Part shown: piece by piece, positions 6,943 to 30,440 of the stretch
Position numbering within the stretch: position 1 is the first letter of the stretch
Layout: every line of letters starts with the position of its first letter
Origin: Candidatus Saccharibacteria bacterium oral taxon 488
Lineage (GTDB): Bacteria; Patescibacteriota; Saccharimonadia; Saccharimonadales; Saccharimonadaceae
Assembly: GCA_010202845.1 (NCBI GenBank)
Contig: CP047921.1
Span: 720,001 to 752,000, forward strand
Reading direction: 5' to 3'
Length of the DNA: 32,000 nucleotides
Notes under the pieces: model-generated
Seen by the model: the letters and a program-made list of their open reading frames with translations, nothing else
Databases searched by the model: none
Told to the model about the DNA's origin: nothing
Translations under genes and position numbers: made by a program

Positions 6943-7401
6943 CTAGAGCAGCTCATCCAGCACTGATTGCCAGTCAGGAAACTGCGGAGTACCGAAATGG
7001 ATGTGCCAGCCAACAAACTCAGCAGCACCCCTGGCCGTCCGATCATCAATCAAGATATCACCCCGGCTCAACTGTTTGACCGACGAAAAGATAACCTTAC
7101 GATAGAAAATATTTTCCTGACCATCGCCGCCAAAATACCGTTTCACCCACGCCAGCTTATCACCCAACGCCGTCGGATTTTCCCATGGTGATGACGACAG
7201 GATGTATAGATCATACTTTTCCTTCAGCTTATCAACCGCCTCAAGGGCGCCCGGCATCGGATCCATCAATGCAAAAACACCCGGAATATTGTCATACTCA
7301 CCCGCAAACTTCTCCAGCATCTCAGGCGGAACCTTCGTCAAAGCCGACGTAAAATCCACGAGTACACCGTCCATATCAAGGTAAATAATTGGTTTCTTCA
7401 T
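6943..7401 (-). CDS. 5'(3')-deoxyribonucleotidase (NT5C-type HAD phosphatase)
   Basis: HAD motif I YLDMDGVLVDF and an overall NT5C-like layout. Start is set at ATG 7401, with AGAGGGA 7 nt upstream inside the lepA 3' end. Confidence 0.75.
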   Translation of the reverse strand: MKKPIIYLDMDGVLVDFTSALTKVPPEMLEKFAGEYDNIPGVFALMDPMPGALEAVDKLKEKYDLYILSSSPWENPTALGDKLAWVKRYFGGDGQENIFYRKVIFSSVKQLSRGDILIDDRTARGAAEFVGWHIHFGTPQFPDWQSVLDELL

Positions 7402-7403
7402 AA

Positions 7404-8366
7404 TCAATCCCTCTTTAACATCACCATAAACGCTTCTGATGGAATGTCAACCTTGCCAAAGCGTTTCATGCGCTTTTTGCCGCGAGCTTGTTTGGCGAGA
7501 AGTTTCTTTTTTCGGCTGACATCGCCGCCGTAGAGGTAGCCGGTGACATCTTTGCGGTAAGCACCGATGTTTTCGCGAGCGATGAATTTGCCGCCAATTG
7601 CTGCCTGCAGTGCCACCTCAAAGCTCTGACGCGGCACCACGTCTTTCAGCTTTTTGACGATCTCACGACCCAAACCTGGCGCCTCCGAGCGGTGACACAT
7701 GACGCTCAGCGCATCAACCATTTCACCCGCCACGTAGAAATCCACCCGCACCAAATCTTCCGGCTGATAGCCCGCCAGTTCATAATTAAACGAGCCGTAG
7801 CCGCTGGTTACCGACTTCAATTGATCATAAAAATCCGTCAGCAAATTGGCCAGCGGTGCCGTAAACGAAATCAGTGCCCGCTCGTCGATGTAACTGAGGT
7901 TTTTTTGCCGACCGCGCTTGGCGACAATCAGCTGAATCACCGCACCGATATAGTCCTGCGGCACCACAATCTCACCATCAATCCACGGCTCGCGAACCTC
8001 GGTGATCTGCACTGGATCGGGCAATTCGCTGGCTGACTTGATGTCCAGCTCCTCGCCGTTGGTGAGGCTAACTTGGTAATCCGTGCTCGGATTGGTGACA
8101 ATAAGATCCAGATTATACTCACGCTCCAGCCGCTCACGAATAATATCCATGTGTAGCAGCCCCAAAAAGCCAATCCGCACACCATACCCCAACACTGGTG
8201 AATTCTCCGGCTCAAACTGCAGCGCCGAATCGCTCAGACTCAGCTTTTCAATAGCCTCCTTCAGATCATTGTAATCTTCGTTGGACACCGGGAAAAAGCC
8301 CGCGTAGACGAAGGGCTTGACTTCTTTGTAGCCGGGCAGGGGCTGGACGGTGATTTTTTCAGTCAT
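7404..8366 (-). CDS. lepA: elongation factor 4 (LepA), C-terminal half (domains III, V and the LepA C-terminal domain) as a separate ORF
   Basis: MTEKITVQPLPGYKEVKPFVYAGFFPVS...GFLGLLHMDIIRERLEREYNLDLI...GGDVSRKKKLLAKQARGKKRMK is colinear with E. coli LepA from ...[23 protein letters not shown] to the end. The G domain and domain II are missing; they are encoded at 19789-20865. Confidence 0.92.
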   Translation of the reverse strand: MTEKITVQPLPGYKEVKPFVYAGFFPVSNEDYNDLKEAIEKLSLSDSALQFEPENSPVLGYGVRIGFLGLLHMDIIRERLEREYNLDLIVTNPSTDYQVSLTNGEELDIKSASELPDPVQITEVREPWIDGEIVVPQDYIGAVIQLIVAKRGRQKNLSYIDERALISFTAPLANLLTDFYDQLKSVTSGYGSFNYELAGYQPEDLVRVDFYVAGEMVDALSVMCHRSEAPGLGREIVKKLKDVVPRQSFEVALQAAIGGKFIARENIGAYRKDVTGYLYGGDVSRKKKLLAKQARGKKRMKRFGKVDIPSEAFMVMLKRD

Positions 8367-8377
8367 AACTGCCTACT

Positions 8378-8386
8378 ATTATATCA
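8378..8386 (-). promoter_or_regulatory. extended -10 box TGATATAAT, 11 nt upstream of the lepA C-half ATG
   Basis: The minus strand reads TGATATAAT-AGTAGGCAGTT-ATG(8366). This is the same motif class as other apparently leaderless genes in the window. Confidence 0.4.
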
Positions 8387-8411
8387 GTTGAGCGTTTACC
8401 TACTCAACTGA
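8384..8411 (-). terminator. hairpin after the 803-aa gene
   Basis: TCAGTTGAG (8384-8392) / CTCAACTGA (8403-8411) form a perfect 9-bp stem with a 10-nt loop, 5 nt downstream of the stop at 8417-8419. There is no clear U-tract. Confidence 0.35.
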
Positions 8412-8416
8412 TCGCG

Positions 8417-10828
8417 TCAACGAATTGGTCCATGTGGAGGTGTGACTATTCCTGCCCGTATAGCCCTGACATATTTGCCCAAGCTGCCCGGCATGTCACG
8501 CCAAAATTCATCGTCATATCGCCCCGACAAGACATCTGCCAAACGCTTGTCCTGATAGTGCTCGATTTGCTCGTATAGCTCACACAATCGCCAGATGATA
8601 AGCTGGTCGCTGTAGCTTGTTAAGCCTACATGTTTTAGGTTGTTAAACTGACCAACTAGCTGACGCATAATCTTAATGTTAGTATCTTCTGTAGACAGCA
8701 AGTCACTCACGAACTCATTTATATCAAACTTTCCTAACGGCGGTTTAACTAGGCTTATAAACTCAATAAATCTCGGCAGACACTTCTTCTCCTTCGCCTC
8801 TTTCGCTAACTCACCAAAATCTGCTTCGACACCCCAATACAATTCTTCTTCCTCTACAGAATCATTAGTAACCAGCCTACCGTCTCCAAACACATCATCA
8901 AACTCACCGCCCATCTCCTTGACTAATGGCTCCGCAAAACGCTTGTATTCACGGAATAGTTCGACACCCTTCCCGTCTTTTATTAAACCATTGATGACAT
9001 CCATGCAGCTACTATCAGCACCGTATCCATAGAGATTACGGTAAATATCTAGCTGGTCTATGCCATAACGCTTTTGATAGCGTTCGTCTCGCGTAAAGAA
9101 TACGCCCCTATCATAGAAAAATACCTTAAGCTTCTCCGCCTGATCAATATGGCGATCAAGGACCAGTCCACCCAGTTTGTCAATAGCCAAAATACCATGA
9201 TAAGCTATAGTTTCCACGTCCTCCACAAAATCACGTTCCGCTCGTGCAGATTGCAGCTTAGCGATACCGCCGTTTTTCCAGAAATAGCTTTCGCCAACAC
9301 TACTATCAGCCCCAAACCACAGCATCATGATGTCCCTTAGGGACAGATCCTCCCCCTTTTGCTGCTTGGTACAAATCTCATCAATCTTTTCGATTGTATG
9401 TATGGTGTCCAATTTATCCTGACCATTAGATAATTCACCGATTCTCTCATGCAGTGCATCTGTCATACACGACTCAACTCGACAGTCATCGCCATCAATC
9501 CCCAAAATCATTTTTATATCACCACCTTCACCCAGACACATCATGATACGAGGAATATTGTATCTACCGGTTGTGAATACAAGTATCTTAGTGATATTTC
9601 TATGGCCAAAGGAATCGTAACTTGATAGTGCAACCTTATACAAAAAGTCATAAATAGAGCCTGAGTCACCAGGGAACCAGCCGGTACATTGACCCTCAAG
9701 TAACGCCTGCACCTCCTCGGCTGTACCTTTTTGGGGCGTGGAAGAATCCTTATACTTACAAATTATTTCATGCCACTCCCCTTGAGTCTCTCGACGTCGC
9801 TCTTGCCCTAGGCCTGTTCGGATCGCTACCTCCCTGCCATACAGCTCACCAAACTTAGCCGCCTCCAGTTCATCGGGCCTATATTTCCACAAAGTTTCAT
9901 ATACCGCCTCAAGCGCCGCAGGATTTACCTCTGGCAAAAGTCTCTTGCTACCAGTTCGGCGAACATCAAATGTTTTGGTTTGCGGATTAAACTCTCCTAG
10001 TTCTGGACAGGCATCGATCACATAGGACAAAAACCAGTCAGGATATCTCCCGGCCTCCAATGCCGCCTTCCACTCGCCCAGACGCCCAAGCTGTGCCTTA
10101 TGAAAGTTACCAACCAACTTAATCTGCGTATCATGATTGTACCAAGCTTCGTCAAGGCCGAATCGTTCACTCCAACGAGGCGACGAAGATGATAACTGAC
10201 GCAGCTCCTCTTCACTAGGCAAACTGTTGACAATCTTACTTTCGGCCACCGGTATCGACATAATATATGAACGATACGGATATCTGTCCGGACCAGTATA
10301 CCAGTTGGGCTTGGTGGTACTTTGCTGAGGCGGCAGTGGCGATTCTTCCTCCTCTAAGTCTGTTGTTTTACCTAGGATATACCGAGTTAGCAACCTCAGC
10401 TTCTTTGTATCGTCAGCCGGATTTTTTGAACCGTATACATTCCCCAGGCGGCTATACCTCTTCACCAGTATCTCCAGGTTGCCATCCCGCCATTCACTAC
10501 CTAGCCTAGTAAAGATATCGCTTGCGAGTAGTCGCTCCAACTCCTCTGGAGTAGCATGCTCAGTCATGACGTCAAATACTGCAAATATTCTCGCGCTTCG
10601 TTCCTGAGACTTCCAGCCCTCCTCTGGATCTTTAAACTCATCCAAAGATATACGGAGAGCTTCCGCCATTTGGCCAGCTACATCAAACGTGTCGGGCGCT
10701 TCTTTTCGAAGTTGCGCTACAACCTGACCCATCTTGTCAGCGGAAACATAGTCTTTGCGAAGCTCACCTTCTAGGGTCGGATCAAGAGCGGGTCTATCAG
10801 GTGTCTCCCGATATTTATCAATCATCAT
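8417..10828 (-). CDS. hypothetical protein, 803 aa (ORFan to my eye)
   Basis: Long uninterrupted ORF with TATAAT 8 nt upstream of the ATG. It is acidic and soluble-looking, with no TM helices and no motif I can assign. Confidence 0.7.
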   Translation of the reverse strand: MMIDKYRETPDRPALDPTLEGELRKDYVSADKMGQVVAQLRKEAPDTFDVAGQMAEALRISLDEFKDPEEGWKSQERSARIFAVFDVMTEHATPEELERLLASDIFTRLGSEWRDGNLEILVKRYSRLGNVYGSKNPADDTKKLRLLTRYILGKTTDLEEEESPLPPQQSTTKPNWYTGPDRYPYRSYIMSIPVAESKIVNSLPSEEELRQLSSSSPRWSERFGLDEAWYNHDTQIKLVGNFHKAQLGRLGEWKAALEAGRYPDWFLSYVIDACPELGEFNPQTKTFDVRRTGSKRLLPEVNPAALEAVYETLWKYRPDELEAAKFGELYGREVAIRTGLGQERRRETQGEWHEIICKYKDSSTPQKGTAEEVQALLEGQCTGWFPGDSGSIYDFLYKVALSSYDSFGHRNITKILVFTTGRYNIPRIMMCLGEGGDIKMILGIDGDDCRVESCMTDALHERIGELSNGQDKLDTIHTIEKIDEICTKQQKGEDLSLRDIMMLWFGADSSVGESYFWKNGGIAKLQSARAERDFVEDVETIAYHGILAIDKLGGLVLDRHIDQAEKLKVFFYDRGVFFTRDERYQKRYGIDQLDIYRNLYGYGADSSCMDVINGLIKDGKGVELFREYKRFAEPLVKEMGGEFDDVFGDGRLVTNDSVEEEELYWGVEADFGELAKEAKEKKCLPRFIEFISLVKPPLGKFDINEFVSDLLSTEDTNIKIMRQLVGQFNNLKHVGLTSYSDQLIIWRLCELYEQIEHYQDKRLADVLSGRYDDEFWRDMPGSLGKYVRAIRAGIVTPPHGPIR

Positions 10829-10836
10829 TGATCACG

Positions 10837-10842
10837 ATTATA
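10837..10842 (-). promoter_or_regulatory. -10 box TATAAT, 8 nt upstream of the 803-aa gene start
   Basis: The minus strand reads TATAAT-CGTGATCA-ATG(10828), with no Shine-Dalgarno. Confidence 0.4.
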
Positions 10843-10874
10843 CTACTTTTTAATAATTTGTCAATTATATTATG

Positions 10875-12578
10875 CTAGCAGGTTGCACCCTGGCGAGTTT
10901 TCTTCAGTATCTCAGCAATCTTCTCCTTTTGCTCGGGGCTGTAGAAATAGCCTAACGCTTTACTCATACCACCGCCTTTCCCCTTAGCACGGTATCGTGA
11001 CGGCTGTCCAAAATTGGGGTCGTTCCTTATTAAACTATCAACTATCCTATCAAATAGAGGGGCACTACAATGTAACTCACGCATGATCTCTTTTTTTACT
11101 TGATACCCTTCAGGAGCCAACTCCGTATAGCCTTCACTTCTGAGATACTTACCTATCTTATCAACTTGCTCCGGTGACAAGCCTTCACGAATTCTCACCT
11201 GACCACTTTCAGCGACAAATCTATAGATTTCAGGCCGTAGGTTCAGCAAGTCCATGGCATCTCTCACCAATTTCAAACCCACCCCAAGGCGCTTTGTTGC
11301 CGTACTTATCATGGCATATCCCTCTGGTGGTGGAGGCGCAAATAACCCATTCTCCTGTGCTTTTCTCATAATCATTGCCTGCTGCTCCGGACTATAAAAC
11401 TCGTGCACCTGACCAGAACGACACTTTATACCATCAGATAGGACACCAGCTTTTTTAAGTTCTCTTGCTATCCTTATCAGTGCCATCACTGTCACATCTA
11501 CAGTTTTGGCGAGAGCAGTGATTGTCAAATACCCCTCTGGGGGCGGCTGTGTAAACAACCCTCTCTCCTCAAGCCTTTTTCGTATTACTTCAACCTGCTC
11601 TTCAGTAAAAATTGATTGCTCTTCTCCATACCAATCTCGCTTAGCTACACATCCCAACAAACCCTCCTGATTCAATTCAGCAATGTGTCTTACGATGGTG
11701 CGATACACTACTCCAAACTTAGCTGCCAATTGATTGGCATTCATCATCCCCTCTTCATTCGCCTGAGGGGGATTTAGATAATTACCCCCGCGCCGGGTAT
11801 CCACCCCAGCTGATTGCTGAATATCATTCGCTAGCGCCTCCACTAGGTGCGGCACAAACTGCTTGTCGCAGCGTACCGATACACCACAGTCTGGATATTG
11901 CTCCATCACCCCCGCAAGCTGCGTTTTCGTACAGGTAGCCAGCTTTGCCCGCTCTTCTTCTGGCAGCCGCGTTGTATCAAATACAAAGGTACCGTTACCG
12001 TAGGCGTCACAAATTAGCACCGTCCGCTCGAGCGGTGGGATATTCACCTCATGGTATGGCTCTTGGCGCATCATCGCTGTCTCCACTGACCCACGACGAA
12101 TCTGTAATGCTTCGCCGCTCGGCTCAATACCAAATTCATTTGCCAACACGAATAGCAGTGTTTTCAGCCGGGGTTGGCGAGTCGCCCTCTCACGGTGGGG
12201 CGCCTCGGACACACTGGCGGTAGGCCCGGGCCGCTCATCGGGTGGCACAAAGACATGGTCAGTCGATTCAATCTGGCCAATAACCGTATCAATAGCTATG
12301 AGCTGCTCCGCTTTGTCAGCAATATGGCCAAGCAACTCATTGAGCGGCTCTATGCCGTAGTAAGCAAACACCGCATTCTCCCTTTCACCAGAATTGTCTA
12401 GCCAAATCGTTGGCTGATGGTTGTATACTTGCACCATATCATTAATTAGCTGGATCAATTTATCCAAGGCAGCCTCAGCGTAGGTATCGACATTTTCAAC
12501 CGTCAACGGTTGATTAATAATTTCCTCTACACTGCTTGCAAAGTCCTTGCCATGATCAATACTACCGAGTCGCTCCAT
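10875..12578 (-). CDS. hypothetical protein, 567 aa, with four tandem ~71-aa HTH-like modules in the C-terminal half
   Basis: Modules at roughly aa 270-346, 347-417, 418-488 and 489-560 each follow the pattern (P)PEGY-x-helix-turn-helix-like segment-...-(Y/L)SPEQ-x3-I-x6-G. They resemble MerR/excisionase-type HTH units. The N-terminal 270 aa is unassigned. Confidence 0.7.
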   Translation of the reverse strand: MERLGSIDHGKDFASSVEEIINQPLTVENVDTYAEAALDKLIQLINDMVQVYNHQPTIWLDNSGERENAVFAYYGIEPLNELLGHIADKAEQLIAIDTVIGQIESTDHVFVPPDERPGPTASVSEAPHRERATRQPRLKTLLFVLANEFGIEPSGEALQIRRGSVETAMMRQEPYHEVNIPPLERTVLICDAYGNGTFVFDTTRLPEEERAKLATCTKTQLAGVMEQYPDCGVSVRCDKQFVPHLVEALANDIQQSAGVDTRRGGNYLNPPQANEEGMMNANQLAAKFGVVYRTIVRHIAELNQEGLLGCVAKRDWYGEEQSIFTEEQVEVIRKRLEERGLFTQPPPEGYLTITALAKTVDVTVMALIRIARELKKAGVLSDGIKCRSGQVHEFYSPEQQAMIMRKAQENGLFAPPPPEGYAMISTATKRLGVGLKLVRDAMDLLNLRPEIYRFVAESGQVRIREGLSPEQVDKIGKYLRSEGYTELAPEGYQVKKEIMRELHCSAPLFDRIVDSLIRNDPNFGQPSRYRAKGKGGGMSKALGYFYSPEQKEKIAEILKKTRQGATC

Positions 12579-12585
12579 GTACGAT

Positions 12586-12594
12586 ATTATAGCA
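12586..12594 (-). promoter_or_regulatory. extended -10 box TGCTATAAT, 7 nt upstream of ATG 12578 (leaderless)
   Basis: The minus strand reads TGCTATAAT-ATCGTAC-ATG, with no Shine-Dalgarno. Confidence 0.5.
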
Positions 12595-12775
12595 TCTTAT
12601 ACTATTATTGTAAATAGTGGGCCCTCTCAATCACAAATAACCACCTTAACCCAGCCACATATTCTTTACTGAATCCCATAATGGCACACTCATGTCTTTA
12701 TCAAATTGAAAATTTAGTTCTCATTAGTGGATTATCGGGTCGGCAAGGGCGCTCAATCCTCTATAATAATGTCTT

Positions 12776-13744
12776 TTAATAGGTCGGTTTAGAATAAGCC
12801 TGCTGTTCGCCATAGCCGATGCGTAGCAAAATAGTCGGATATTCTCCGGCCAGACCCAGTGTCTTTGCCATTTCTGCGGCAATTTCTGGCTGCTCATTTG
12901 GCTGGTTCAGATAGGCATGAGCGATCCCAAGCTCCGTGGCAGTCAGCAAGAAACGCTGCAGCGTCCGACCCAAACTCACCCATTCGCACCGACTATTTTC
13001 TCTCGTCGTAAAAAGAACCAGATGAGAAGCCGATGCTATCTTTTCGCGATCGGCCTTATTCTGCGTCTTAGCATTGATAGCCATCGACATGATCGGCTCA
13101 GCCATCCAGCGCGGCACATTAGGCGCGCCAAACACAGCATAACTCAGCCCGTCAAGTGTTTGATCTTGATGCTTCTTGTTAAATCGCATCCAGCTTTTCA
13201 ATTCAGCCTTAAACGCCTCATTTTGCATTTGACGTACATTTCCTTGAAAGACACATTGTTCAATATCATGAAATTGCTCTGTTTGATGTGCGTAATAATG
13301 AACTGAGACACCCTTTTCATTGCTAACGGATTGTAGTTTCTTTAGTGCATCCGGAGCAATTTCCTCACCGGTATAAATGCTACGATTAATCTGCCGTGCA
13401 TCTATCTGTTCGAACAATGGACTCGGCTTGATACCAGCATCTTCTGTAAGTGAAATCGTGATAACTCCCGTATCACCAATTGAAATGGTAGATTTATAGC
13501 CCTTGGTTTGCGCTGCCAAGCAGAGGTTCTCGGCTGCACAGCCCAGACTCACGAATAACTCCCTGTTGTCAGGGTCGACTACTGGTAGCTTTCTGTCAAA
13601 ATCAGGATAAATTTCTACCGCCGACTCGTTCTGACGAAATTTCCACGGCTGAGTATTATGGCCTGACGGCGCCTTGACAGCTTGCGCAACCAAAAATTCA
13701 AAGCTAGCTGATGATATGTTGTTACTGCGAGACATTCTTACCAT
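12776..13744 (-). CDS. Acg-type (double-domain) nitroreductase family FMN oxidoreductase
   Basis: The N-terminal AVKAPSGHNTQPWKF motif and the ~320-aa two-lobed length match the Acg/Rv2032-like nitroreductase family. The start is ambiguous (TTG 13756, ATG 13744 or ATG 13735). Confidence 0.7.
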   Translation of the reverse strand: MVRMSRSNNISSASFEFLVAQAVKAPSGHNTQPWKFRQNESAVEIYPDFDRKLPVVDPDNRELFVSLGCAAENLCLAAQTKGYKSTISIGDTGVITISLTEDAGIKPSPLFEQIDARQINRSIYTGEEIAPDALKKLQSVSNEKGVSVHYYAHQTEQFHDIEQCVFQGNVRQMQNEAFKAELKSWMRFNKKHQDQTLDGLSYAVFGAPNVPRWMAEPIMSMAINAKTQNKADREKIASASHLVLFTTRENSRCEWVSLGRTLQRFLLTATELGIAHAYLNQPNEQPEIAAEMAKTLGLAGEYPTILLRIGYGEQQAYSKPTY

Positions 13745-13832
13745 AATTCTACCCAATACACGAGCCTTCCCATCTCGTTAGCTACTTCTTATAACCAAGT
13801 ATACTCACCCTATAGGAGCGAGGTCAATCAAT

Positions 13833-13943
13833 ATCGCCAAGACTAAGCTTTCAGCCATTCTTCTTGAAATCATTGTAATCCTCGTTAGATGCCAGGAAAA
13901 AGCCTGACTATCCTACTTACACCATTCTAACCGCCTGAGTCAT
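13833..13943 (-). pseudogene. lepA: decayed copy of the first ~135 nt of the lepA C half (junction remnant C')
   Basis: The minus strand starts with ATGACT, as the real C half does. It then reads ...GGCTTTTTCCTGGCATCTAACGAGGATTACAATGATTTCAAGAAG..., which aligns to lepA 8229-8366 (GFFPVSNEDYNDLKEAIEKLSL). It carries an internal deletion, a 1-nt indel and an in-frame TAA. Confidence 0.75.
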
Positions 13944-14031
13944 GACCTTAGGCGGGCGAGAGTGTTCTATGTATTGCCAGACAGATGTCGCAGGCTAGAT
14001 TGGTCTATATTACCAACTCGTATGCATGTTC

Positions 14032-16647
14032 CTATACGAGCCTATCTAGCCCCTGTCCAAGTTTGATACTGTAAGGATAAGCTGGGTCAAAAACTTCTGC
14101 GCGTTCAAAATCGATCGGCCGCATTGATGCAATACGGTATTGCCCATTATCATCCCTGCTATACTCAATGATAAAATCTTTCAAACGCCATGGTTTATCA
14201 ATCCCTGTATCATGCCGTACGGTCTCAGCGATGTCTTGTATGCGCGAAAGGGCGTCAGTCATCAGCTCTCGCTGATTTGACTCCGGCACAGCATTGTCCA
14301 CAAAGAAATTGCGTACCGTTCGCCCGCTCTCGCCATTTATCTTCTCCATCACAACAAAACCTTGTTGCCCGTTCGTAAAGACCCGAGCAATTGGCTTTGG
14401 CGCGTCAACGCCAAGCTTGCGTAGCAACAAAAGCGCCTCGAACTCATCGACTGGCCCCCGACGCTTTGCCTCCACGACATTCTTCACAATCACCTCGGTG
14501 TCGCCAGCAAGCGATAGCCCAAAAACTGCCTCACCAGGATACGGATCGTTTGGGTTCGCTATTTTGAGTGATGTCGCCGACTGCAGTAGTTCGGTGCCAA
14601 TATCAGGACTTGAGAACAGTTCGGATAACTGGCCTTTTACTGCCTCACTATAACTACTGTCGATCCTCATTTCTCGCTGATTTTCCAGGCTTCTCACTTC
14701 GTAACCCAAGTTAACCGGCTCCGTGTTTTTTAGCTCGCGAGTATAGTAATGCCGGTGCAGAGCTAGCTGTGTCATACGAAAAGCCAGACGTTCACTGGGG
14801 CTAGTCGGTCGACTATACGGTTCCAACCGGCCATCTTCAGTGCGATACAAACCCCCTGCTGACTCTTCGTCCTTGACATTGTATTCTATAGTATCTACTA
14901 TATTATTTCTTTCCAGCTTGTCACCTTTCAGACCCAGCACCGTTCTTGGTCGGTCTCTTGCACTAAGCAGTCTAATTCGGCTATCATAATCATAGTCTGA
15001 CCCTGGCACCCCTAGCACGCTCATGATATCGTCAGGAATCGTTCCTGTAAATCCAGTGTCATAGTAATGGGCGGCGTCTGGGTGCTGGATATGAGAACGC
15101 AGGTACTCGCCTTTTACTTCGTCGTTAAAGTTATTGCAAAACTTTCGCGGATACACAAGGTAGGTAGGAAACTCTATGAGCGACCCGCCTGTCGCACGGC
15201 TACTCATACCGAGTTTGCGGCGGCGGGCGTAGAGTTGAGCACGGCGCCCCACGTACGCATAGACACCGTCACGACCGAGGAATACTTCTTCAAATTCTCT
15301 CTCGCCTATCCGCTTAGTGTCCCACTCGGCAAACAATCTATCGTAGTAGCCAGTATCAACTTCAAGTACCTGATTGAATATTTTAGCCGCTCTTTCCAGG
15401 GTTTCAGATATATCAATCTCTCCCATCTCGGCTATATAGTCTGCCACCAGCCTGCGGTAGGTCGGCCAGGCATCACCCGTCTTGTCTCCTCGCCCACCGA
15501 ATAACTCTTGGACATACCGGTCTCCGTACCGCGACGCTATATCCTTCTGCAGTTTATCGTAGGCCTGTTTAATAGTCTCTCTCAATCTCCTATCATCTTC
15601 GGTTTTGGGAAGTCGCAAACGTCGATCGGCCTGAACCGCTCTTTTGTGAAATTCCGTCCCCGGTCGAGATGATGTCACATGCTCTATGTCACCCGCCTCG
15701 TCTGCGTATGGATGATATTTCACTATACCGCGCAGCTCTGGCTTGAGTTCGGCAATATATGCACGTAACCTAGACGCCTCTTCTGCACCAATAAGCCCCT
15801 CCAGGTCAAGCTGAGTAACTTTTTGCGCAGTCGAGTAGTGGTTTGCACATGCCCACAATACAGTACTCCGTGCGACTGTGTCCATACCGTAGTATGATAA
15901 ATGACCAAGGACGGCATCTGCTAGATCGTCGCTTAATTTTATCTTATCTATACAGCTAAGGACTATTTCTGGGGCAGTTTCACCAAAGACATATACGCAT
16001 TGCAGTACCTGTAATTCATAGCCGGCATCAATGAGTTCGTAGGCGATACTAGCATCAAGGCCGGTAAAGTTCTTGAGGTAGCCAGCAACTACATCACCGT
16101 GGCCGGTATTGATGATTTTGTGGGCAATTTCATTGTGATCGAGACCAGTAAAGTTCTTGAGGTAGTAGGTGACTGTCCCACAATTACCAGCATCGATGAG
16201 TTTGTGGGCAATTTCATTGTGATCAAGGCCGGTGAAGTTCTTGAGGTAGTAGGCAACTGTCCCACTCTCACAGGCATCGATGAGTTTGTGGGCAATACTA
16301 GCATCAAGGCCGGTGAAGCTATCGAGGTTGCGGGCAACTGCCCGACCATGGCCGGCATTGATGAGTTTGTGGATGTCATGGTTCGTCAATTGATGGTTAG
16401 AATTCTCGCTTACCAGAGTCTCAAGCAACTCATCAACAGTGTATGTATCTTCTACCGCCTGCTTAAACCCTCTCTCACCATCTCGCGCAACATGACCAAC
16501 AAGAGAATTCTCGACACAAGAAAGACCTTCGTGATTCTCTGCCCGACCCGCAGAGTCCCCTGTCAAGTCTTCAGAGTCCAATGAACCTTCGGTTATGTAT
16601 TCAGAATCATCTACTCTTATAATTTTTCCTGTTTCGTGACCGTTCAT
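14032..16647 (-). CDS. hypothetical multidomain protein, 871 aa (N-terminal 27/28-aa helical repeats, C-terminal kinase-like region)
   Basis: AAGGAAAAA Shine-Dalgarno. Aa ~90-230 carry 4-5 repeats of HKLIDAGxxGxVxxYLKNFTGLD(HNE/AS)IA. The centre has FLGRDGVYAY ... YYDTGFTGTIPDD, faintly HAD-like. The last ~170 aa carry VIVK, EFEALLLLRKLG, VVMEKINGES and PIDFERAE, spaced like an APH/choline-kinase/RIO-type fold. Confidence 0.7.
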   Translation of the reverse strand: MNGHETGKIIRVDDSEYITEGSLDSEDLTGDSAGRAENHEGLSCVENSLVGHVARDGERGFKQAVEDTYTVDELLETLVSENSNHQLTNHDIHKLINAGHGRAVARNLDSFTGLDASIAHKLIDACESGTVAYYLKNFTGLDHNEIAHKLIDAGNCGTVTYYLKNFTGLDHNEIAHKIINTGHGDVVAGYLKNFTGLDASIAYELIDAGYELQVLQCVYVFGETAPEIVLSCIDKIKLSDDLADAVLGHLSYYGMDTVARSTVLWACANHYSTAQKVTQLDLEGLIGAEEASRLRAYIAELKPELRGIVKYHPYADEAGDIEHVTSSRPGTEFHKRAVQADRRLRLPKTEDDRRLRETIKQAYDKLQKDIASRYGDRYVQELFGGRGDKTGDAWPTYRRLVADYIAEMGEIDISETLERAAKIFNQVLEVDTGYYDRLFAEWDTKRIGEREFEEVFLGRDGVYAYVGRRAQLYARRRKLGMSSRATGGSLIEFPTYLVYPRKFCNNFNDEVKGEYLRSHIQHPDAAHYYDTGFTGTIPDDIMSVLGVPGSDYDYDSRIRLLSARDRPRTVLGLKGDKLERNNIVDTIEYNVKDEESAGGLYRTEDGRLEPYSRPTSPSERLAFRMTQLALHRHYYTRELKNTEPVNLGYEVRSLENQREMRIDSSYSEAVKGQLSELFSSPDIGTELLQSATSLKIANPNDPYPGEAVFGLSLAGDTEVIVKNVVEAKRRGPVDEFEALLLLRKLGVDAPKPIARVFTNGQQGFVVMEKINGESGRTVRNFFVDNAVPESNQRELMTDALSRIQDIAETVRHDTGIDKPWRLKDFIIEYSRDDNGQYRIASMRPIDFERAEVFDPAYPYSIKLGQGLDRLV
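16022..16400 (-). repeat. in-frame tandem repeat, about 4.5 units of 81/84 bp, inside the 871-aa gene
   Basis: Unit starts are at 16022, 16103, 16187, 16271 and 16352. Units 16103-16186 and 16187-16270 are near-identical at the DNA level. Confidence 0.9.
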
Positions 16648-16881
16648 TTTTTCCTTTTACCTATTGATGATTATGGTCTATATTGTAATATATAGCCACT
16701 GAACGCCGCAAGTATTCTATTCTAAAGTGTCTTACTCGCAGGATTAGGTTTGCAGCTCAGAGAGGACTGTTCCGCCATATTTAGCATGGCGTATCTAACG
16801 ACTATGGTCATGGTGGATCGGCTGAGGGGATCGGGTCTTGACATGGTTTTTCAATCAGCTTGATTTAGCAAAATACTTGGT

Positions 16882-17196
16882 TTACTCCCACCGCCGCGTG
16901 CTATTGATCTCGTGCTTCTCAAAATACACTTCCGCCAAATTAACATCAAACCGATTCGCCAGCTCCATCAAATAATTCAGTACATCCGCAAATTCCTCGT
17001 GCAGATTATCATGGTTATCAGGTCTTTTTTCTCCCTTAAATCCCGTCTCTTTGCGAATCGCTTTCGCCAGCTCGCCAACCTCCTCAGTAAACAATAAGAA
17101 TACTTCGGTAACAGAATTTTTATCCCATCCTTTTTCTTTACACGTTTGATCGAGGTGTTTTTGTAATTCAGTTAAGCTGATTGTTTGTGGATTCAT
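16882..17196 (-). CDS. MazG-like nucleoside triphosphate pyrophosphohydrolase (small, single domain)
   Basis: 104 aa with the EEVGELAKAIRK ... EEFADVLNYLMELA motif pair typical of the all-alpha MazG/NTP-PPase fold. GAGGAGAAG Shine-Dalgarno. Confidence 0.8.
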   Translation of the reverse strand: MNPQTISLTELQKHLDQTCKEKGWDKNSVTEVFLLFTEEVGELAKAIRKETGFKGEKRPDNHDNLHEEFADVLNYLMELANRFDVNLAEVYFEKHEINSTRRWE

Positions 17197-17240
17197 ACTT
17201 CTCCTCTATTTATCTCGTTATCGACGCGAATGGCTTGCGT

Positions 17241-17849
17241 TTATAATTCAACATCCGGCAAGTCCTTCAACTTCTTGCCGTCAAAGCAAAAATACGCTGC
17301 ACCCTGATAGGCACCGCTATTGTTGGCTTGATTTTTATCTTCGAAGATCTTTCGCACTAGCGGCGACAGTAGCCACCGCTGTCCGCCATACTCAACTTCA
17401 CGTTCGCCGACAACTTTAGCGACAATCGTCTGGTCTTTGCTAAAGACAATTTTATCGCCGTTTTTGAGGCCTTTTCGATAAAAGCTAAACTTTTGATTAC
17501 TGTTCTTGGCTTTGGTGATTTTATCAAATTCCGCTTCTTTATTTTTCTGCTCCGGAAAGATCACCTCACCCTCAAACGACAGCAGCAGTTGTCGCACCAA
17601 ATCATAATCAAGCGCGAAAAGCTCGCTACTACCGACTCGATGCTTGGCAAATATTTCGTGCAGTAATGTTTCCTTTTCGGAGTAGTCAGCCACCTCGATC
17701 GCGAACAACCGCTTCAAACCAACCACATTGTAGTAGCCGTTCGCCTCGAGAAAACGCATCCGCTCTGGGTATTGCTTGGTTTGCGCCTTGCCGATTTTGA
17801 TAAGGCCTGACACTGCGGTGGTCATGACGTAGATGATGCCTTTGCTCAT
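17241..17849 (-). CDS. GIY-YIG / T5orf172-family nuclease-like protein with a C-terminal extension
   Basis: The N terminus GIIYVMTT...GLIKIGKAQ...ERMRFL...EKETLLHEIFAKHRVGSSELFAL matches the T5orf172/GIY-YIG-like pattern. AAGGAGGA Shine-Dalgarno. The C-terminal ~90 aa is unassigned. Confidence 0.7.
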   Translation of the reverse strand: MSKGIIYVMTTAVSGLIKIGKAQTKQYPERMRFLEANGYYNVVGLKRLFAIEVADYSEKETLLHEIFAKHRVGSSELFALDYDLVRQLLLSFEGEVIFPEQKNKEAEFDKITKAKNSNQKFSFYRKGLKNGDKIVFSKDQTIVAKVVGEREVEYGGQRWLLSPLVRKIFEDKNQANNSGAYQGAAYFCFDGKKLKDLPDVEL

Positions 17850-18019
17850 TATAATTCCTCCTTATAACTAATATTCTACACTACTTTCACAGAACCTAGC
17901 TTGTTGAAGAATCACTATTTATAACCTGAGAGGCCTCCAGCCGGTCTCTCAGTTGAAAATATTGGCTGGCAGACACTTTGACCGGGTCGTCTGAAGTATC
18001 AATCACAGTTTACTCTGCA

Positions 18020-18142
18020 TTTTCTCAACGTAACCGTATCAGCTACCCGCGCCTCACGAGTGGTGTTGAGGTTGGTAATAATGTAGCCGGGTAGCAGTGT
18101 TTCCTTTCCGGAATATTCAGTCGCCCCAATCGCTTCATGCAT
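18020..18142 (-). pseudogene. lepA: decayed copy of the lepA N-half 3' end (junction remnant N'3)
   Basis: It translates to MHEAIGATEYSGKETLLPGYIITNLNTTREARVADTVTLRK, then unrelated CRVNCD*. By hand alignment, 54 of 69 nt are identical to lepA 19807-19875. Similarity stops at the same Lys codons as in the real gene. Confidence 0.8.
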
Positions 18143-18192
18143 AATGTTGTAGCATTTTATTTTATAAATAATGGCAACTCATTCTTAACTCA

Positions 18193-18870
18193 CTATGCTT
18201 TCGGCAAAAAACCGCGCGCCACGAGCGCCTGCCAAGCCGTGTCTGCCGAGAGAGATGACGGCTGAGGCGTTGAAAATCCCTTATCGGGATAGATCTTTAT
18301 CCGCTCGTAATCACCCAGCATCAACGTCAACATCATGACGGCACTGCCATAGGTTACCTCATATAAGCGATAATATGCCTCTAATGTTGTCGGCTGACTA
18401 GTTACATACAGTCGCGGCCGCGGGTGCGGCCACTGAGCCTCGGCGGTTGCCAAAAATCGACGCGTCATATACGGTTTATGAATTAAAATGATATCCTCAG
18501 CCTGGATCGCCGCCCCCGCCAGCAGCTGAGCCGAACGGATGATGTTTTCACCGGTATTAGCAGCTTGGTGCTCAAACAGAATCGCCGAGTCGGGCACCGC
18601 CAAGCATTGGAGCTGTCGTCCTAGCAGTGTCGCTTCGGTTTCCGTGGCCCTATGATAGGGATTAGCAAATCCTGACACCACAATCCATGAACTAATGCCC
18701 GCATGATACAGCTCGGCTGCTCGCTCGGCGCTATCGACCATAGCTCCCGCGCCACCGATCACGATAGCATCCGCCCGCACCGGTAGCCGACTCTCAACAC
18801 AAAGATATTCCCATAGCACATGAAGATGGTGCCAGTCTTGATCAGTGAGAGCTAGCTGACTACGCGACAT
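18193..18870 (-). CDS. YdcF/DUF218 (ElyC/SanA/YdcF) family protein
   Basis: 225 aa with AIVIGGAG...VVSGF...EATLLGRQL...ANTGENI, characteristic of the DUF218 family. The start overlaps the tail of remnant N'2. Confidence 0.75.
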   Translation of the reverse strand: MSRSQLALTDQDWHHLHVLWEYLCVESRLPVRADAIVIGGAGAMVDSAERAAELYHAGISSWIVVSGFANPYHRATETEATLLGRQLQCLAVPDSAILFEHQAANTGENIIRSAQLLAGAAIQAEDIILIHKPYMTRRFLATAEAQWPHPRPRLYVTSQPTTLEAYYRLYEVTYGSAVMMLTLMLGDYERIKIYPDKGFSTPQPSSLSADTAWQALVARGFLPKA

Positions 18871-18886
18871 GTGTTAGCTCTCGGTG

Positions 18887-18995
18887 TTTTTTCAATGTCG
18901 CTGTATCGCCCACCCGCACTTCACAGTTGATGACGATGTGGCCAATTTCACCGGTGTCCAGCGATGGGCTAGGATCATACCCTGACTGAGATTGA
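18887..18995 (-). pseudogene. lepA: decayed copy of the lepA N-half 3' end (junction remnant N'2)
   Basis: It lies inside the 78-aa ORF 18860-19096: ...[32 protein letters not shown], then unrelated HRELTHVA*. Hand alignment to lepA 19808-19905 gives a 37-nt block with 6 mismatches, a 12-nt gap and a 49-nt block with 6 mismatches. Confidence 0.85.
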
Positions 18996-19145
18996 TTATG
19001 ACACCGCTGCCAAAACTCCGGTACCACAAACGTGACCGACGACGCTGCGAAAGCAACTGCCAAATGCGTGTTGTATTCTCTGAAGAAGGATGTCATTCAT
19101 TCAGTATAGCATCTTACAAAGATGGAGTGACATCCACAGGGTTAC

Positions 19146-19784
19146 TTACGTTTCAACTTCCTTACGAGATATCCACACGACCATCATAATAGACCAGCCA
19201 AATAGTGACACTTCCGACACCACTGTCAATGGCACCGAGACTTCGCCCGCATAGTATGTGCCGACGACCTTTAGCAATGCAACACATACGCTTATTAGGA
19301 TAATCAGCCGAGATTTCGTAATAATTGCTACCGCAATAACACATGCAGACAATGCCAGCGCCATCCAATGTAGTCCCGCAAACAGTTGACTCGCCGATAA
19401 TACACTTGTTGCTGAGTCAATCGGCAATCCATTCACCGGATAAACGAGTCGGCCAAGCGCCATCATTGCGTAAAATGCGCCAATTGCCACAACAATACCT
19501 AGAGCAAGAACTACACCCATGCTAACAGGGTGGCGCCTCCTGAGATTACCGTACAATACCACAACAACGGCTAGCAACATTGACGACCCACATGCTAGCA
19601 TCTCATCTGCTATCTGAAAAGTAGTCTGGTGCTGTTGCACCCACGCCATCACACCCGAAATGTCTGCTGAAGGTATCGGCAGTGACATTGCAATACTAAT
19701 GCAGGCCGCGGCAAGCAAACCAAAACCCATCAACCATACGATACTACCAATATACGAAATACGCCGACTGCCTTGCTTCACCAC
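19146..19784 (-). CDS. hypothetical integral membrane protein (about 6 TM helices)
   Basis: 212 aa and strongly hydrophobic. GTG start with AAGGAG 7 nt upstream; that RBS lies in the last codons of the lepA N half. Confidence 0.6.
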   Translation of the reverse strand: MVKQGSRRISYIGSIVWLMGFGLLAAACISIAMSLPIPSADISGVMAWVQQHQTTFQIADEMLACGSSMLLAVVVVLYGNLRRRHPVSMGVVLALGIVVAIGAFYAMMALGRLVYPVNGLPIDSATSVLSASQLFAGLHWMALALSACVIAVAIITKSRLIILISVCVALLKVVGTYYAGEVSVPLTVVSEVSLFGWSIMMVVWISRKEVET

Positions 19785-19788
19785 TATC

Positions 19789-20865
19789 TCACTCCTTTGT
19801 CATATACTTTTTCAACGTCACCGTATCACCCACCCGTGCTTCACGCGTAGTCTTCAAGTTGGTGACGATGTAGCCAATTTCACCGGTATCCAGCGATGAG
19901 TCAGGGATCATGCCAGGACTAAGATGGCCAACTTCTAGTGCCAGCCCGTTAGCGCCAGTCGCCATCATATGAATTGCTTCACCTTTTTTGATTTGGCCGT
20001 CAACCACCCGCACATACAAAATCACCCCGCGGTAATCGTCATAATAACTATCAAAAATCAGTGCCCGCGTCGGGTCGTCCGGCTGGCCAGTTGGCGCTGG
20101 AATTCGCTCAACAATCGCCGCTAAAACTTGGTCAACATTCTGCCCAGTTTTGGCAGAAATATGAATAATGTCGCTTTCATCGCAGCCCAGCAAATTAATC
20201 ACCTGTTTGGACACCCGTGGCACATCAGCGGCCGGCAAATCAACCTTGTTCAGCACCGGAATGATCGTCAAATCCTGCTCCATCGCCAGGTATACATTCG
20301 CCAGCGTCTGCGCCTGAATGCCTTGGCTGGCGTCAACCACCAATACCGCGCCCTCGCAGGCCTGCAAACTACGCGACACCTCATAACTAAAGTCAACGTG
20401 ACCAGGCGTGTCGATGAGATTGAGATCGTAGACAGTTGGCTGAGCCAACCCATTCACACCGACATCTGCACAAACCCGAGAGTCAGACTGCGCTAAGCGG
20501 GTGGCAGTCGATGGGGTAGCGCCCGCTTCTGAAGAAATCTCTGATTTTTCAGAAGAAGGGGCGGATCGACTGGCAGGACCCGCGTCTAGCGACCGACGTG
20601 AAGACTCTGCAAGAGTCTTCGACGATGGGAGCGGTGATGCGCCGCTCACCTCCACCTCCTGATATTCATATTTCATCCGCACTGGCGCGAGCTTAATGGT
20701 GATCCCCTTCTCGCGCTCCAAATCCATACTATCCAGCAGCTGCGACTTCATCTCGCGCTTCTCCACCGTCCCCGTCATCTCCATCATCCGGTCCGCCAGC
20801 GTCGATTTACCGTGATCAATGTGAGCGATGATACAAAAATTACGAATACTGGTCAGCGGTTTCAT
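19789..20865 (-). CDS. lepA: elongation factor 4 (LepA), N-terminal half (G domain + domain II) as a separate ORF, with a ~72-aa low-complexity insertion
   Basis: [15 protein letters not shown] (G1), GITIK (G2), DTPGHVDF (G3) and NKVDL (G4). It is colinear with E. coli LepA up to ...VGDTLTL, then reads KKYMTKE*. The start overlaps the murJ stop (TGATG). Confidence 0.92.
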
Positions 20866-22526
20866 CAGCGCCTCAACTTGCTCATATCAAATCGCGAAAA
20901 CAGCAGACGTTTAATTCGCACCAAAACCGGGTCGATTTCTGGTAGCCTTAGCCACTTGGACAGCGCACCATACACGACAAAATTGAAAATCGTAATTGCC
21001 CCAAACTTGGGTAGCGCCCCCAAAAAACTGTCATCCGACGCCCGGAACGGAATTACCAACACGCTGACGTAGCACGCCACCGCAAGCGGCACCGCGGCTA
21101 ACGCCATCTTGGCGACCGCTTTGACAAATGTCGCATCAAACAGCTGTGGCATGCGCCGACCTAAAATAACGCATAAAATCACCACCTCGACAAAAGCCAC
21201 GATCGACTGTGCCCAGGCCAGACCATACGGGCCAAGTTTCGCGTAGTAGCCGAGTATCACCGCCAGCGCCACATTCAACACAATCGCAAAAATCGACACA
21301 TACATCGGCGTCTTGGTGTCCTGCTGCGCATAAAATCCGCGCGCCACCATGTGATACACCGTCCTGAATAAAATCGCCATCACCAGACAACCGAGAATGT
21401 TCGCCATGACCGGATCGCCATTATTATTGATAAAGTGTACTATGTAGCCGCGGGCGAAAAATGTCACCACACAGATCGGGATAATCATCCAGATTACCGT
21501 CCTGAGAAATGACCGCAGGTCTCTGCGAAATAGATCCGGCCGCTCTGAGGCGAGGCGTTCAGTTAGCTGCGGAAAGGCAGCATTAGAAATAGCGACGCCG
21601 ATGAGATTGATCGGCATCATGTGAAGCGTCAATGCTTGGTTATAGCGACGAATGACACCGTCCCCCATCCGCGACGCCAAGTTGACTTCGGCCAGGCTAA
21701 CCACATAATCCATCCCCTGATCAATTGAGCGGGCTGGTAGCAGCGACAAGACTTTGCGAAAGCCATGGTTACGCCAATAAATCTTGAAATCATAATCAAA
21801 ACCGAGGCCGATCAATCCAACCGCACTGACGATGAGCTGCAGCACCGACCCGAGCACCACGCCGAGCGCCACGCCCATAATGCCGCCATCAAAGATCTGC
21901 CAGCCGAACAGGTTGATGCCATTGGTAAACCACAACGTACCGATGATAATCCCGACATTGTACAGCATCGGCGCCAGCGCATAGAAGGTGAAGCGACCGA
22001 CCGCTTGCTGGATGCTGGCGATCACCGCCGCCACCGCAAAGATCAGCGGATTTACGGCGATCACCCGCATCATACTGACCGCCAATGCGTGACCAGCCTC
22101 GCTCAGCCCCGGCGCGATCAGATATTTCATTAGCGGATCAGCAAAGACGATGATCAGAACGCTCGTTACCAGCGTCACCAATGCCATGAGATTAATCATG
22201 CTCGAGCTAATTTGCCAGGCTGATTGCTTATTACCCTTGACCCACCGCTCATTAAATACCGGGATGAAGGTAACGCTCAGTGCCCCCGACACTAGAATCG
22301 CAAACATAAAATCCGGCACCATGAACGCCGCCGTATAGGCATCCAGCCCGACTGGATAGCCAGCCAAGTGAGCCTTCTCGTTGGGAAAATATGCCGCATT
22401 CAAAAAGCGATCGCGCAGCAGCCCCAGCAAGCTTGACAGCAACATCGAGCTCGCTAAAATCGTGGCAGCTAACTTGACTGTCAGCCGCTGATTGATCTTG
22501 TTGACAACATTACGAACGCGCCCCAT
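20865..22526 (-). CDS. murJ: lipid II flippase MurJ (MviN family)
   Basis: 553-aa polytopic membrane protein with a MurJ-type N terminus ([19 protein letters not shown]) and the length and topology of the MOP flippase family. Confidence 0.85.
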
Positions 22527-26425: not shown

Positions 26426-26502
26426 TGGTAGCACCGGGTGGACCCGAACCACCGACCTCAGGCTTATGAGTCCTGCGCTCTAACCAGCTGAGCTACGGTG
26501 CC
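26426..26502 (-). tRNA. tRNA with anticodon CAT, elongator tRNA-Met-like (tRNA-Ile2/lysidine not excluded)
   Basis: The minus strand reads GGCACCGTAGCTCAGCTGGTTAGAGCGCAGGACTCATAAGCCTGAGGTCGGTGGTTCGGGTCCACCCGGTGCTACCA. It folds as a cloverleaf with a GTTCGGGTC T-loop and an encoded CCA. Confidence 0.9.
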
Positions 26503-30363: not shown

Positions 30364-30440
30364 TGGTTGCGGGGGTAGGATTTGAACCTACGACCTTTTG
30401 GTTATGAGCCAAACGAGCTACCAGGCTGCTCTACCCCGCG
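30364..30440 (-). tRNA. initiator tRNA-fMet (anticodon CAT)
   Basis: The minus strand reads CGCGGGGTAGAGCAGCCTGGTAGCTCGTTTGGCTCATAACCAAAAGGTCGTAGGTTCAAATCCTACCCCCGCAACCA. It closely resembles E. coli tRNA-fMet, including the C1xA72 mismatch, and encodes CCA. Confidence 0.93.

Follow-up and report, generated by a model that had tools for sequence, protein, structure and literature searches.

Elongation factor 4 of some Saccharibacteria is encoded by two half-genes that flank a variable slot of gene cassettes

We analyzed a 32,000-nucleotide stretch of the genome of Candidatus Saccharibacteria bacterium oral taxon 488 (assembly GCA_010202845.1, contig CP047921.1, positions 720,001 to 752,000; hereafter the window, with positions counted from its first letter), in which lepA, the gene for the translational GTPase elongation factor 4 (EF4), consists of two colinear minus-strand open reading frames (ORFs) at 19789–20865 (lepA-N, the N half) and 7404–8366 (lepA-C, the C half). 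The N half matches Pfam families GTP_EFTU (8.9e-53) and GTP_EFTU_D2 and keeps all GTPase motifs (G1–G5, SAK and the catalytic histidine of DTPGH), and the C half matches EFG_III, EFG_C and LepA_C (3.6e-43). The EF4 domain set is complete across the halves, with domain II in the N half, domains III and V and the LepA-specific C-terminal domain (CTD) in the C half, and EF-G domain IV absent. Along the 595 positions of the NCBIfam lepA equivalog TIGR01393, the N half occupies 1–281 and the C half 278–594; on the Aquifex LepA structure 2ywe the halves cover 5–285 and 283–598, and on the T. thermophilus structure 5imq the N half reaches 283 and the C half begins at 284. The break therefore sits in the short, flexible linker between domain II and domain III, where the halves overlap by 3–4 positions only, and no LepA segment is lost. 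These alignments bear out an initial annotation, made from the sequence alone, that had described lepA as two colinear intact ORFs broken at the domain II/III boundary and together making up one full EF4: both ORFs are present at the minus-strand coordinates it gave and the Pfam domains divide between them as described. The N half ends in YMTKE followed by a stop codon, and the C half opens with MTEKITVQ-PLPGYKEVKP, a stop codon lying two codons upstream of its ATG. Scored alone, the N half reaches 415.9 bits and the C half 437.3 bits, both below the TIGR01393 equivalog cut-off of 533.9 bits; the split gene does not encode the single ~600-aa polypeptide by which EF4/LepA is defined, and public annotations call the half-proteins 'GTP-binding protein' or 'hypothetical protein'.

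Read along the minus strand, the locus runs from ftsH (22533–24401) through murJ, lepA-N, nine ORFs, lepA-C and an NT5C-type nucleotidase gene toward gmk (5080–5799) (Table 1). The initial annotation had placed ten co-oriented genes between the halves, none of them linked to translation; the absence of a translation link holds, but the count is nine ORFs of at least 78 aa, one of which (18860–19096) is built around a copy of the N-half end. An exact-sequence look-up with the C half returned one 6.7-kb contig with the order 567-aa protein, 802-aa protein (803 aa in the window), lepA-C and NT5C, and look-ups of the 871-aa protein and of lepA-N found no record.

Table 1. Features of the split lepA locus in the window (positions within the 32,000-nucleotide stretch)
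Feature	Position	Strand	Description
lepA-N	19789..20865	-	EF4 G domain and domain II, 358 aa
lepA-C	7404..8366	-	EF4 domains III and V and LepA C-terminal domain, 320 aa; begins MTEKITVQPLPGY
murJ	20865..22526	-	conserved upstream neighbor of lepA in split and intact lineages
NT5C-type 5'-nucleotidase	6943..7407	-	neighbor downstream of lepA-C
G-domain insert	20431..20661	-	low-complexity S/A/P-rich, ~77 aa; beta2-beta3 hairpin of lepA-N G domain, between GITIK and DTPGH, directly after switch I
Predicted lepA-C promoter	8378..8407	-	TTGAGT-18-(TG)TATAAT, extended -10, ends 11 nt before ATG; overlaps 11-bp hairpin after 803-aa gene
c20	19146..19784	-	212-aa multi-pass membrane protein; GTG start 4 nt past lepA-N stop
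78-aa ORF	18860..19096	-	built around leftover N-half-end copy (scar 1)
c1	18193..18870	-	DUF218 protein, 225 aa
c17	17241..17849	-	T5orf172/GIY-YIG-like, 202 aa; PADLOC defence candidate PDC-S57 match 2.7e-58
c13	16882..17196	-	MazG-like nucleotide pyrophosphohydrolase, 104 aa
c2	14032..16647	-	871-aa protein, no assigned function; four 84-nt tandem repeats (16054-16386); weak kinase-like C terminus
c12	12776..13756	-	nitroreductase-family protein, 326 aa
c11	10875..12578	-	567-aa protein with repeated HTH modules; own promoter 12586-12614
c4	8417..10828	-	803-aa protein, no family match; perfect-consensus promoter 10837-10864, 8 nt from ATG
Scar 1	18885..18992	-	degenerate lepA-N 3'-end copy, 75-88% identity; homology ends exactly at TLKK junction; inside ORF 18860-19096
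Scar 2	18018..18133	-	T5orf172 gene fragment fused to second degenerate lepA-N 3'-end copy (18018-18088, 79%); ends at junction
Scar 3	13833..13904	-	degenerate lepA-C 5' copy, residues ~22-46, 75%; just upstream of nitroreductase cassette

We compared the lepA loci of 80 Saccharibacteria species representatives, mapping both halves in each (labels such as L001, L006 and L089 denote compared lepA loci or contigs). The gene is split in 30 of the 80, with both halves recovered in 26 and a contig ending short of the N half in four; 49 representatives carry an intact lepA and one has an internal stop. The cut falls at the identical residue in every split allele: N halves end GDTVTL[KR][KR]Y plus 1–20 residues and C halves start M..I.V[QE]PLPGY. 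In intact alleles this stretch consists of GDTVT[VL].[KR], five or six residues and then PLPGY, with a linker of the type ...TV[KR]R-xHAxx-PLPGY that differs from the split type. The halves lie between 344 bp and 11.4 kb apart with zero to ~11 ORFs between them, and wherever the contig permits they co-occur in the ancestral order and locus. The order ftsH-murJ-lepA is constant in split and intact loci, with gmk downstream in the majority of oral-type loci and in many of the rest. Searching proteins with the C half yielded ~8000 relatives, the best 120 of which (86–98% identity) are nearly all stand-alone proteins of 304–345 aa from Candidatus Nanosynbacter, Saccharimonas and other Saccharibacteria, and the closest 120 relatives of the N half are all stand-alone G plus domain II proteins of 283–367 aa; public data hold several hundred such stand-alone half-proteins. 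Candidates for independent lepA splits in other phyla were rejected: these short matches in a 50%-cluster library are not clean halves but begin within domain II or stem from chimeric gene calls.

The split is also visible in the cultivated Southlakia epibionticum ML1, for which a transposon-sequencing (Tn-seq) table lists SEML1_0728 as MviN/MurJ, SEML1_0727 as a 918-bp 'GTP-binding protein' and SEML1_0726 as a 687-bp hypothetical gene, the split locus comprising SEML1_0727, 0726 and 0725 (PMC10633639 Table S1). Both ML1 halves are flagged as core families and called non-essential, with no mention in the main text (PMC10633639); because 'lepA' appears only once in the gene table of that paper, no second intact copy is annotated in ML1. 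Literature searches found no published description of a split lepA, both genes being listed without discussion in one supplementary table.

This distribution changes the reading of the locus. The initial annotation had seen an accessory island inserted into the lepA of this genome and had proposed a search for an empty-site allele, yet the split is shared across species at one residue with gaps of 0.34 to 11.4 kb, and none of the compared loci holds an uninterrupted allele with the split-type junction (TLKK...ITVQPLPGY); intact relatives carry the different linker, the nearest intact allele, P0113, reading ...ITVKRAHATTPLSGYK.... Because the split is old and shared, the gap variable and an empty-site allele absent from the comparison, the 11.4-kb island appears to have accreted inside an already split gene and to be still turning over. 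The split is an old, selectively maintained 'gene in pieces' in this clade and not a one-off insertion. The concern that the island might be a mis-join, a general risk with metagenome contigs, is met by the same layout in the complete oral taxon 488 genome CP040003.1 (889,964 bp), which reads ftsH-murJ-lepA-N, 211-aa protein, 78-aa ORF, DUF218, T5orf172, MazG, 926-aa protein, lepA-C; in L089, a 742-kb contig whose island is nearly the same as that of the window (95% nucleotide identity); and in three 12.5-kb contigs from other human oral samples that span from within lepA-N to within lepA-C. A complete genome and no fewer than five independent assemblies share this architecture, and 30 species the split state, which makes an assembly artefact scarcely conceivable.

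Both halves bear the mark of selection. By the Nei-Gojobori method, and counting pairs with dS 0.05–1.5, split lineages give a dN/dS of 0.066 in the N part (79 pairs) and 0.022 in the C part (74 pairs), compared with 0.079 (four pairs only) and 0.028 (one pair only) for the corresponding parts of intact lepA. Compared with deeper split lineages, the window shows dS at or past saturation, and 26 independent split loci contain no frameshifts or stops. Since both halves are under strong purifying selection, the split did not inactivate lepA; with start signals of their own as well, the halves look like two working genes, not one broken gene. Decay of a dispensable lepA after a recent inactivating insertion, with the ORFs as remnants, would suit a gene that is non-essential in E. 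coli (PMC4245954) and whose halves are both non-essential in ML1 (PMC10633639), but it is contradicted by dN/dS of 0.02–0.07 over saturated-dS divergences, by the undamaged reading frames and by conserved start signals, and we regard it as very improbable.

The start signals differ between the two halves. The start of lepA-N overlaps the murJ stop (ATGA), and AAGGAG in the last lepA-N codons lies 8 nt before the GTG of the following membrane-protein gene, at the expected place of its Shine-Dalgarno sequence. Upstream of lepA-C is a predicted extended -10 promoter (Table 1), and each of the 27 oral-type loci has TATAAT, mostly with a preceding TG, 6–14 nt ahead of its C-half start, while the sequence farther upstream varies with the neighboring cassette. 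In the six environmental split loci the C half instead starts in close coupling with the gene before it, several of them having an ATGA overlap; in L027, too, the start is coupled to the preceding stop. The hairpin upstream of lepA-C is not significantly more stable than shuffled sequences (z = -1.8). Near-consensus sigma-70 promoters at 10837–10864, 12586–12614 and 8378–8407 (minus strand) end 7–11 nt before the starts of the 803-aa gene, the 567-aa gene and lepA-C, a spacing which suggests that these three genes may be transcribed into leaderless or very short-leader mRNAs. Neither lepA half is mentioned in the supplement of a N. lyticus paper that was consulted for expression data.

From the co-retention, colinearity and selection of the halves and the published requirement for the CTD, we infer that they would act jointly as a two-subunit EF4. 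The EF4 CTD is required for efficient ribosome-dependent GTPase turnover (PMC4339808), so EF4-type function would need both halves, and reassembly of two separate polypeptides, thought plausible in the initial annotation, seems plausible to us as well. A contrasting possibility is that the halves pursue separate careers, for example lepA-N as a stand-alone ribosome-associated GTPase and lepA-C as a separate ribosome-binding factor. Their expression signals are separate and they lie up to 11 kb apart, so that equal amounts are not enforced; the N half has also gained variable G-domain inserts (of length 0, 25–34, 53 or 77 aa among split lineages, with unrelated inserts at the same spot in a few intact lepA genes), and the C half is far more conserved. 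Separate careers are nonetheless unlikely given that the halves stay together in ancestral order, that selection on each resembles that on intact lepA, and that the N half keeps all GTPase motifs while ribosome-stimulated GTPase turnover needs the CTD (PMC4339808).

The gap between the halves is highly variable. In 27 split loci (26 species representatives and the window), the gap is a mosaic: its ORFs are cassettes, nearly all co-oriented, that recur between loci in shuffled combinations and vary in content by species and strain, and island content differs even among contigs encoding an identical N-half protein. Gap families in these loci include three NUDIX groups, MazG, Ham1, nitroreductase, SDR, GrpB, peptidase S51, DUF6994, DUF218 and glycosyltransferase, as well as Fic with HTH, a CCA/poly(A)-polymerase fused to a Schlafen domain, SemiSWEET and a DNA-alkylation repair protein. 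The T5orf172 gene, which has a weak match (1.1e-6) to a phage 'homing endonuclease' family, is confined to the window, L006, L008, L082–L089 and close relatives, directly following lepA-N in L006, L008 and L085–L088, and is absent from L001–L005, L012–L022 and all environmental split loci.

Partial copies of lepA lie inside the island itself (Table 1). Two of these scars are copies of the last 70–110 bp of lepA-N at 75–88% identity, with a common 3' stop after the TLKK codons and differing 5' starts, and the third, a copy of the 5' part of lepA-C, recurs together with the nitroreductase module in L008, L009 and L022. At least one scar is present in 6 of the 27 loci. Comparison of the window with L001 links scars to cassettes: the window arrangement of scar 1 followed by DUF218 corresponds in L001 to the real N-half end followed by DUF218, and the L001 membrane-protein cassette is preceded by a mini-copy, TLKKYMIKE-stop, whose counterpart in the window is the actual lepA-N tail. 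By this comparison, each cassette adjoining a half carries its own piece of that half. The scar layout, with a full half, a new cassette, a truncated old copy and then an older cassette, fits a putative single crossover of a circular molecule made of a lepA piece and a cassette, or alternatively one homologous end combined with an illegitimate join. A target-site duplication, for which the N tail YMTKE and the C head MTEKI had been compared, was dropped as an explanation, the tail traveling with the membrane-protein cassette and both heads and tails differing between relatives.

Dedicated mobility machinery was not detected. Searches with Pfam, NCBIfam, PHROGs and PADLOC found no integrase, transposase or recombinase in the window island or in the 28 cassette families of other loci, and no att-like or attC-like motif recurs between cassettes; a pattern search with up to 3 mismatches for a short att-like core at cassette borders gave only the three known N-end copies, not above chance. 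Rfam detected no group I/II ribozyme in the window, its sole matches being tRNA genes at 26429–26502 and 30367–30440 (minus strand). Several known mechanisms were rejected on these and related grounds: a self-splicing intron, by the missing ribozyme and by the stop and start signals that the halves have of their own; a split-intein fractured gene, by tails of 5 and 8 residues, no intein blocks and no Cys/Ser/Thr splice residue; an integron, by finding no IntI and no repeated inverted-repeat element between cassettes; an integrase-borne island or prophage, by the lack of a recombinase domain and the presence of only ragged, degenerate copies of the target ends; and a split made by a free-standing homing endonuclease, by a T5orf172 gene that is not in every split allele.

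A wider proposal of this kind is that a site-specific mobile element, either a free-standing homing endonuclease or an integrase supplied in trans, split lepA and drives the turnover, the junction being its target and the partial copies att-type repeats. One junction in all split lineages, the interspersion of split and intact species in both protein trees described below, the T5orf172/GIY-YIG-like gene placed right after lepA-N in some loci, and direct repeats of the target end flanking the first cassettes are what such an element would leave. Only a minority of split loci have the T5orf172 gene, however, none of them deep-branching, and no integrase or transposase was detected in any gap; the repeats of 70–110 bp have differing 5' truncation points and only 75–88% identity, no short core motif recurs at other cassette borders, and tail and head codons vary with the neighboring cassette. 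We judge this element-driven origin quite unlikely. Programmed excision restoring an intact lepA, as with the skin (sigK) or nifD elements, would give a re-joined junction reading TLKKYMTEKITVQ. A join across the shared ATGAC would be in frame, but trivially so, because both ATGs are codons of their own ORFs; the element has no recombinase gene, the shared sequence is just 5–6 nt and is not conserved in relatives, and no re-joined allele occurs among ~240 protein clusters or the 80 loci, leaving excision with almost no credence.

Sequence relationships point to exchange through the half-genes and their flanks. In the window, the murJ region shares 93% identity with L010 but 68% with L006, whereas lepA-N shares 91.5% with L006 and 83% with L010; because these identities point to different loci, a breakpoint lies near the 5' part of lepA-N. 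Neighbor-joining trees with bootstrap were built for LepA and for the flanking FtsH and MurJ proteins. The LepA tree has a uniformly split oral clade (98%) and pairs intact with split species (L030 with L037, 97%; L026, L032 and L035 together, 95%), and the FtsH plus MurJ tree likewise intermixes the two states and conflicts with the lepA tree at high bootstrap. There, the split L022 pairs with the intact L060 at 99%, in agreement with its MurJ protein (75% identical to L060 versus 60% to the window), whereas its lepA-C is 93.6% identical to the window versus 89.4% to L060. The distant environmental lineage L028 carries a G-domain insert homologous to that of the window. Together, these data support the view that islands and whole lepA alleles have been exchanged by homologous recombination. 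Natural competence and recombination with ~1-kb arms have been shown experimentally in Saccharibacteria (PMC10633639). The locus has the features of a recombination hotspot, with gene content that changes from strain to strain and species to species while the two conserved flanks stay the same, and with signs of homologous exchange through these flanks in mosaic identity, in the conflict of lepA and flank trees and in flank-end scars.

We consider it probable that Saccharibacteria with this locus make a two-subunit EF4 from a selectively maintained split gene, and that the gap is a recombinase-free cassette slot which uses the half-genes as homology arms. Under this explanation, lepA-N (G domain and domain II) would be translated in tandem with murJ, and lepA-C (domains III and V and the CTD) would be expressed from its own extended -10 promoter or, in environmental relatives, by translational coupling to the preceding gene; the two polypeptides would then join, on or off the ribosome, through the native interface of the G/II block with the III/V/CTD block. 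After the split, the space between two extremely conserved half-genes would have become a gene-exchange hotspot that operates with no recombinase of its own. Incoming DNA carrying the lepA-N end or the lepA-C start beside a cargo gene would recombine into the resident half, by a Campbell-type single crossover or by one homologous end and one illegitimate join, and either entry route would yield a full half-gene, a new cassette and the truncated old copy as a scar. Double crossovers in both halves, made easy by the natural competence of Saccharibacteria, would swap whole islands or alleles between lineages.

Several points weigh against this explanation or limit it. That the two proteins would be made, bind each other and act on the ribosome is deduced from sequence, and an AlphaFold model of the concatenated halves, run on the single sequence, reached a pLDDT of 31.6, too low to be of use. 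Both halves are non-essential in the ML1 Tn-seq data (PMC10633639); lepA is likewise non-essential elsewhere, so fitness data are so far silent on function. Very few pairs underlie the dN/dS contrast with intact lepA, each tree was built by neighbor joining from one or two proteins, and just 6 of the 27 loci have recognizable scars. In sliding windows around the junction, nucleotide identity is 0.65–0.85 throughout, and because the sites are saturated, a single origin followed by lateral spread is not separable from recurrent fission and fusion. The search for a recombinase covered the gap genes, and one encoded elsewhere in the genome might also act here. A more far-reaching possibility, which we put forward only tentatively and hold to be rather less likely, is that split lepA is a self-propagating recombinase-free gene-capture platform: the halves would serve as portable homology arms, natural transformation would move the cargo, intact lepA would be converted, and the split allele would hitch-hike on useful cargo, with EF4 surviving as an obligate two-subunit GTPase.

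Individual cassettes and neighboring genes show further variation. The window carries an intact nitroreductase gene (326 aa), which is cut to a 150-aa ORF in the near-identical islands L089 and L091–L093, in which window positions 13367–13536 have no match. The 871-aa protein with its 28-aa tandem repeats is 926 aa long in CP040003.1, and four other strains have a large, perhaps homologous ORF of 661–1260 aa at its position; because ORF size at this position varies, it may be a strain-variable repeat protein. Nucleotide house-cleaning or salvage enzymes are common in and beside the gap (L001–L045, and window 16882–17196 and 6943–7407), comprising MazG, three NUDIX families, Ham1/ITPase, NT5C and a deoxyribosyltransferase-like protein, and conflict-type genes occur in it too, namely Fic, Schlafen and a glycosyltransferase that also matches a GT4-conflict family. 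Extra ORFs of ~100–200 aa with Pfam Parb-CE matches lie between lepA-C and NT5C in L085–L088, so the downstream border of lepA-C is also variable. Positions 1–13731 of L090 (ERZ772753 NODE_30, 113 kb), at a contig end, hold cassettes 97.6% identical to window 19819–13536, and the adjoining 3–4 kb, examined by GC profile and junction sequence, have 65% GC, encode GlnA and GlnE and look actinobacterial; either TM7 cassettes moved into a host-like genome or the assembly is chimeric. Downstream of the nucleotidase gene in the window, ORF 5852–6808 (minus strand) encodes a 318-aa proline/serine/alanine-rich, low-complexity protein with no family match and 68% identity to L010, and it accounts for a local GC-skew reversal (+0.2) and raised GC content.

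The split lepA locus combines features of several known systems. Oliveira et al. (Nat Commun, 2017) reportedly described integration hotspots between conserved core genes, often without mobility genes, with turnover by homologous recombination in the flanks. The lepA gap resembles these in holding strain-variable accessory genes between two conserved flanks, but here the flanks are halves of one ancestral gene and the scars place recombination within the flanking coding sequences. In the ultra-small episymbiont Nanoarchaeum equitans, conserved informational genes exist as two separate ORFs with halves scattered round the genome, unlike the lepA halves, which are colinear in the ancestral locus around a cassette slot. 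Tandem genomic islands at tRNA genes share with the lepA gap accreted units bounded by partial target-end repeats and an intact copy at one edge, but the gap has no integrase, its outer repeat ends are ragged, and a mirror-image process appears at both halves. Integron arrays are similarly built of co-oriented, unrelated single-gene cassettes with fast turnover, whereas the lepA gap has no IntI, attI or attC and many of its cassettes have their own promoters. A close parallel in gene structure is Aeromonas phage Aeh1 nrdA, the gene of an essential-type enzyme, cut like lepA by inserted DNA, there the homing-endonuclease gene mobE, into two colinear intact ORFs with short new tails at the cut ends, and whose halves were shown experimentally to assemble into active enzyme (PMC3045599). 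In lepA, by comparison, the host is a bacterial chromosome, the product a translational GTPase and the insert anything from 0 to ~11 ORFs of varying content in place of one endonuclease gene; the split is kept in many species, and assembly of the halves is a prediction. Fractured genes with split inteins (PMC2677866) and the dnaE split inteins likewise separate two encoded protein halves by foreign genes; with 5 residues after the N junction, 8 before PLPGY in the C half and no Cys/Ser/Thr splice residue, lepA has no space for intein fragments at the cut, and its two products would not be expected to be ligated. The locus therefore joins known kinds, gene fission and a recombination hotspot, and split lepA itself is new as far as we have found.

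As far as our searches reach, this is the first natural case of an EF-G-family translational GTPase encoded in the form of two polypeptides that part at the hinge joining the G/II block to the III/V/CTD block. Because both halves miss the lepA equivalog cut-off, annotation pipelines may score EF4 as absent or fragmented in these genomes. The split EF4 offers a natural experiment on the need for covalent linkage of the G/II and III/V/CTD blocks, and it occurs in strains that are now cultivable and engineerable (N. lyticus and S. epibionticum). For engineering, the lepA gap seems to be a place where insertions are tolerated in nature. More broadly, the locus suggests that in naturally competent, genome-reduced episymbionts gene fission can make a conserved gene into a cassette slot that needs no dedicated recombinase.

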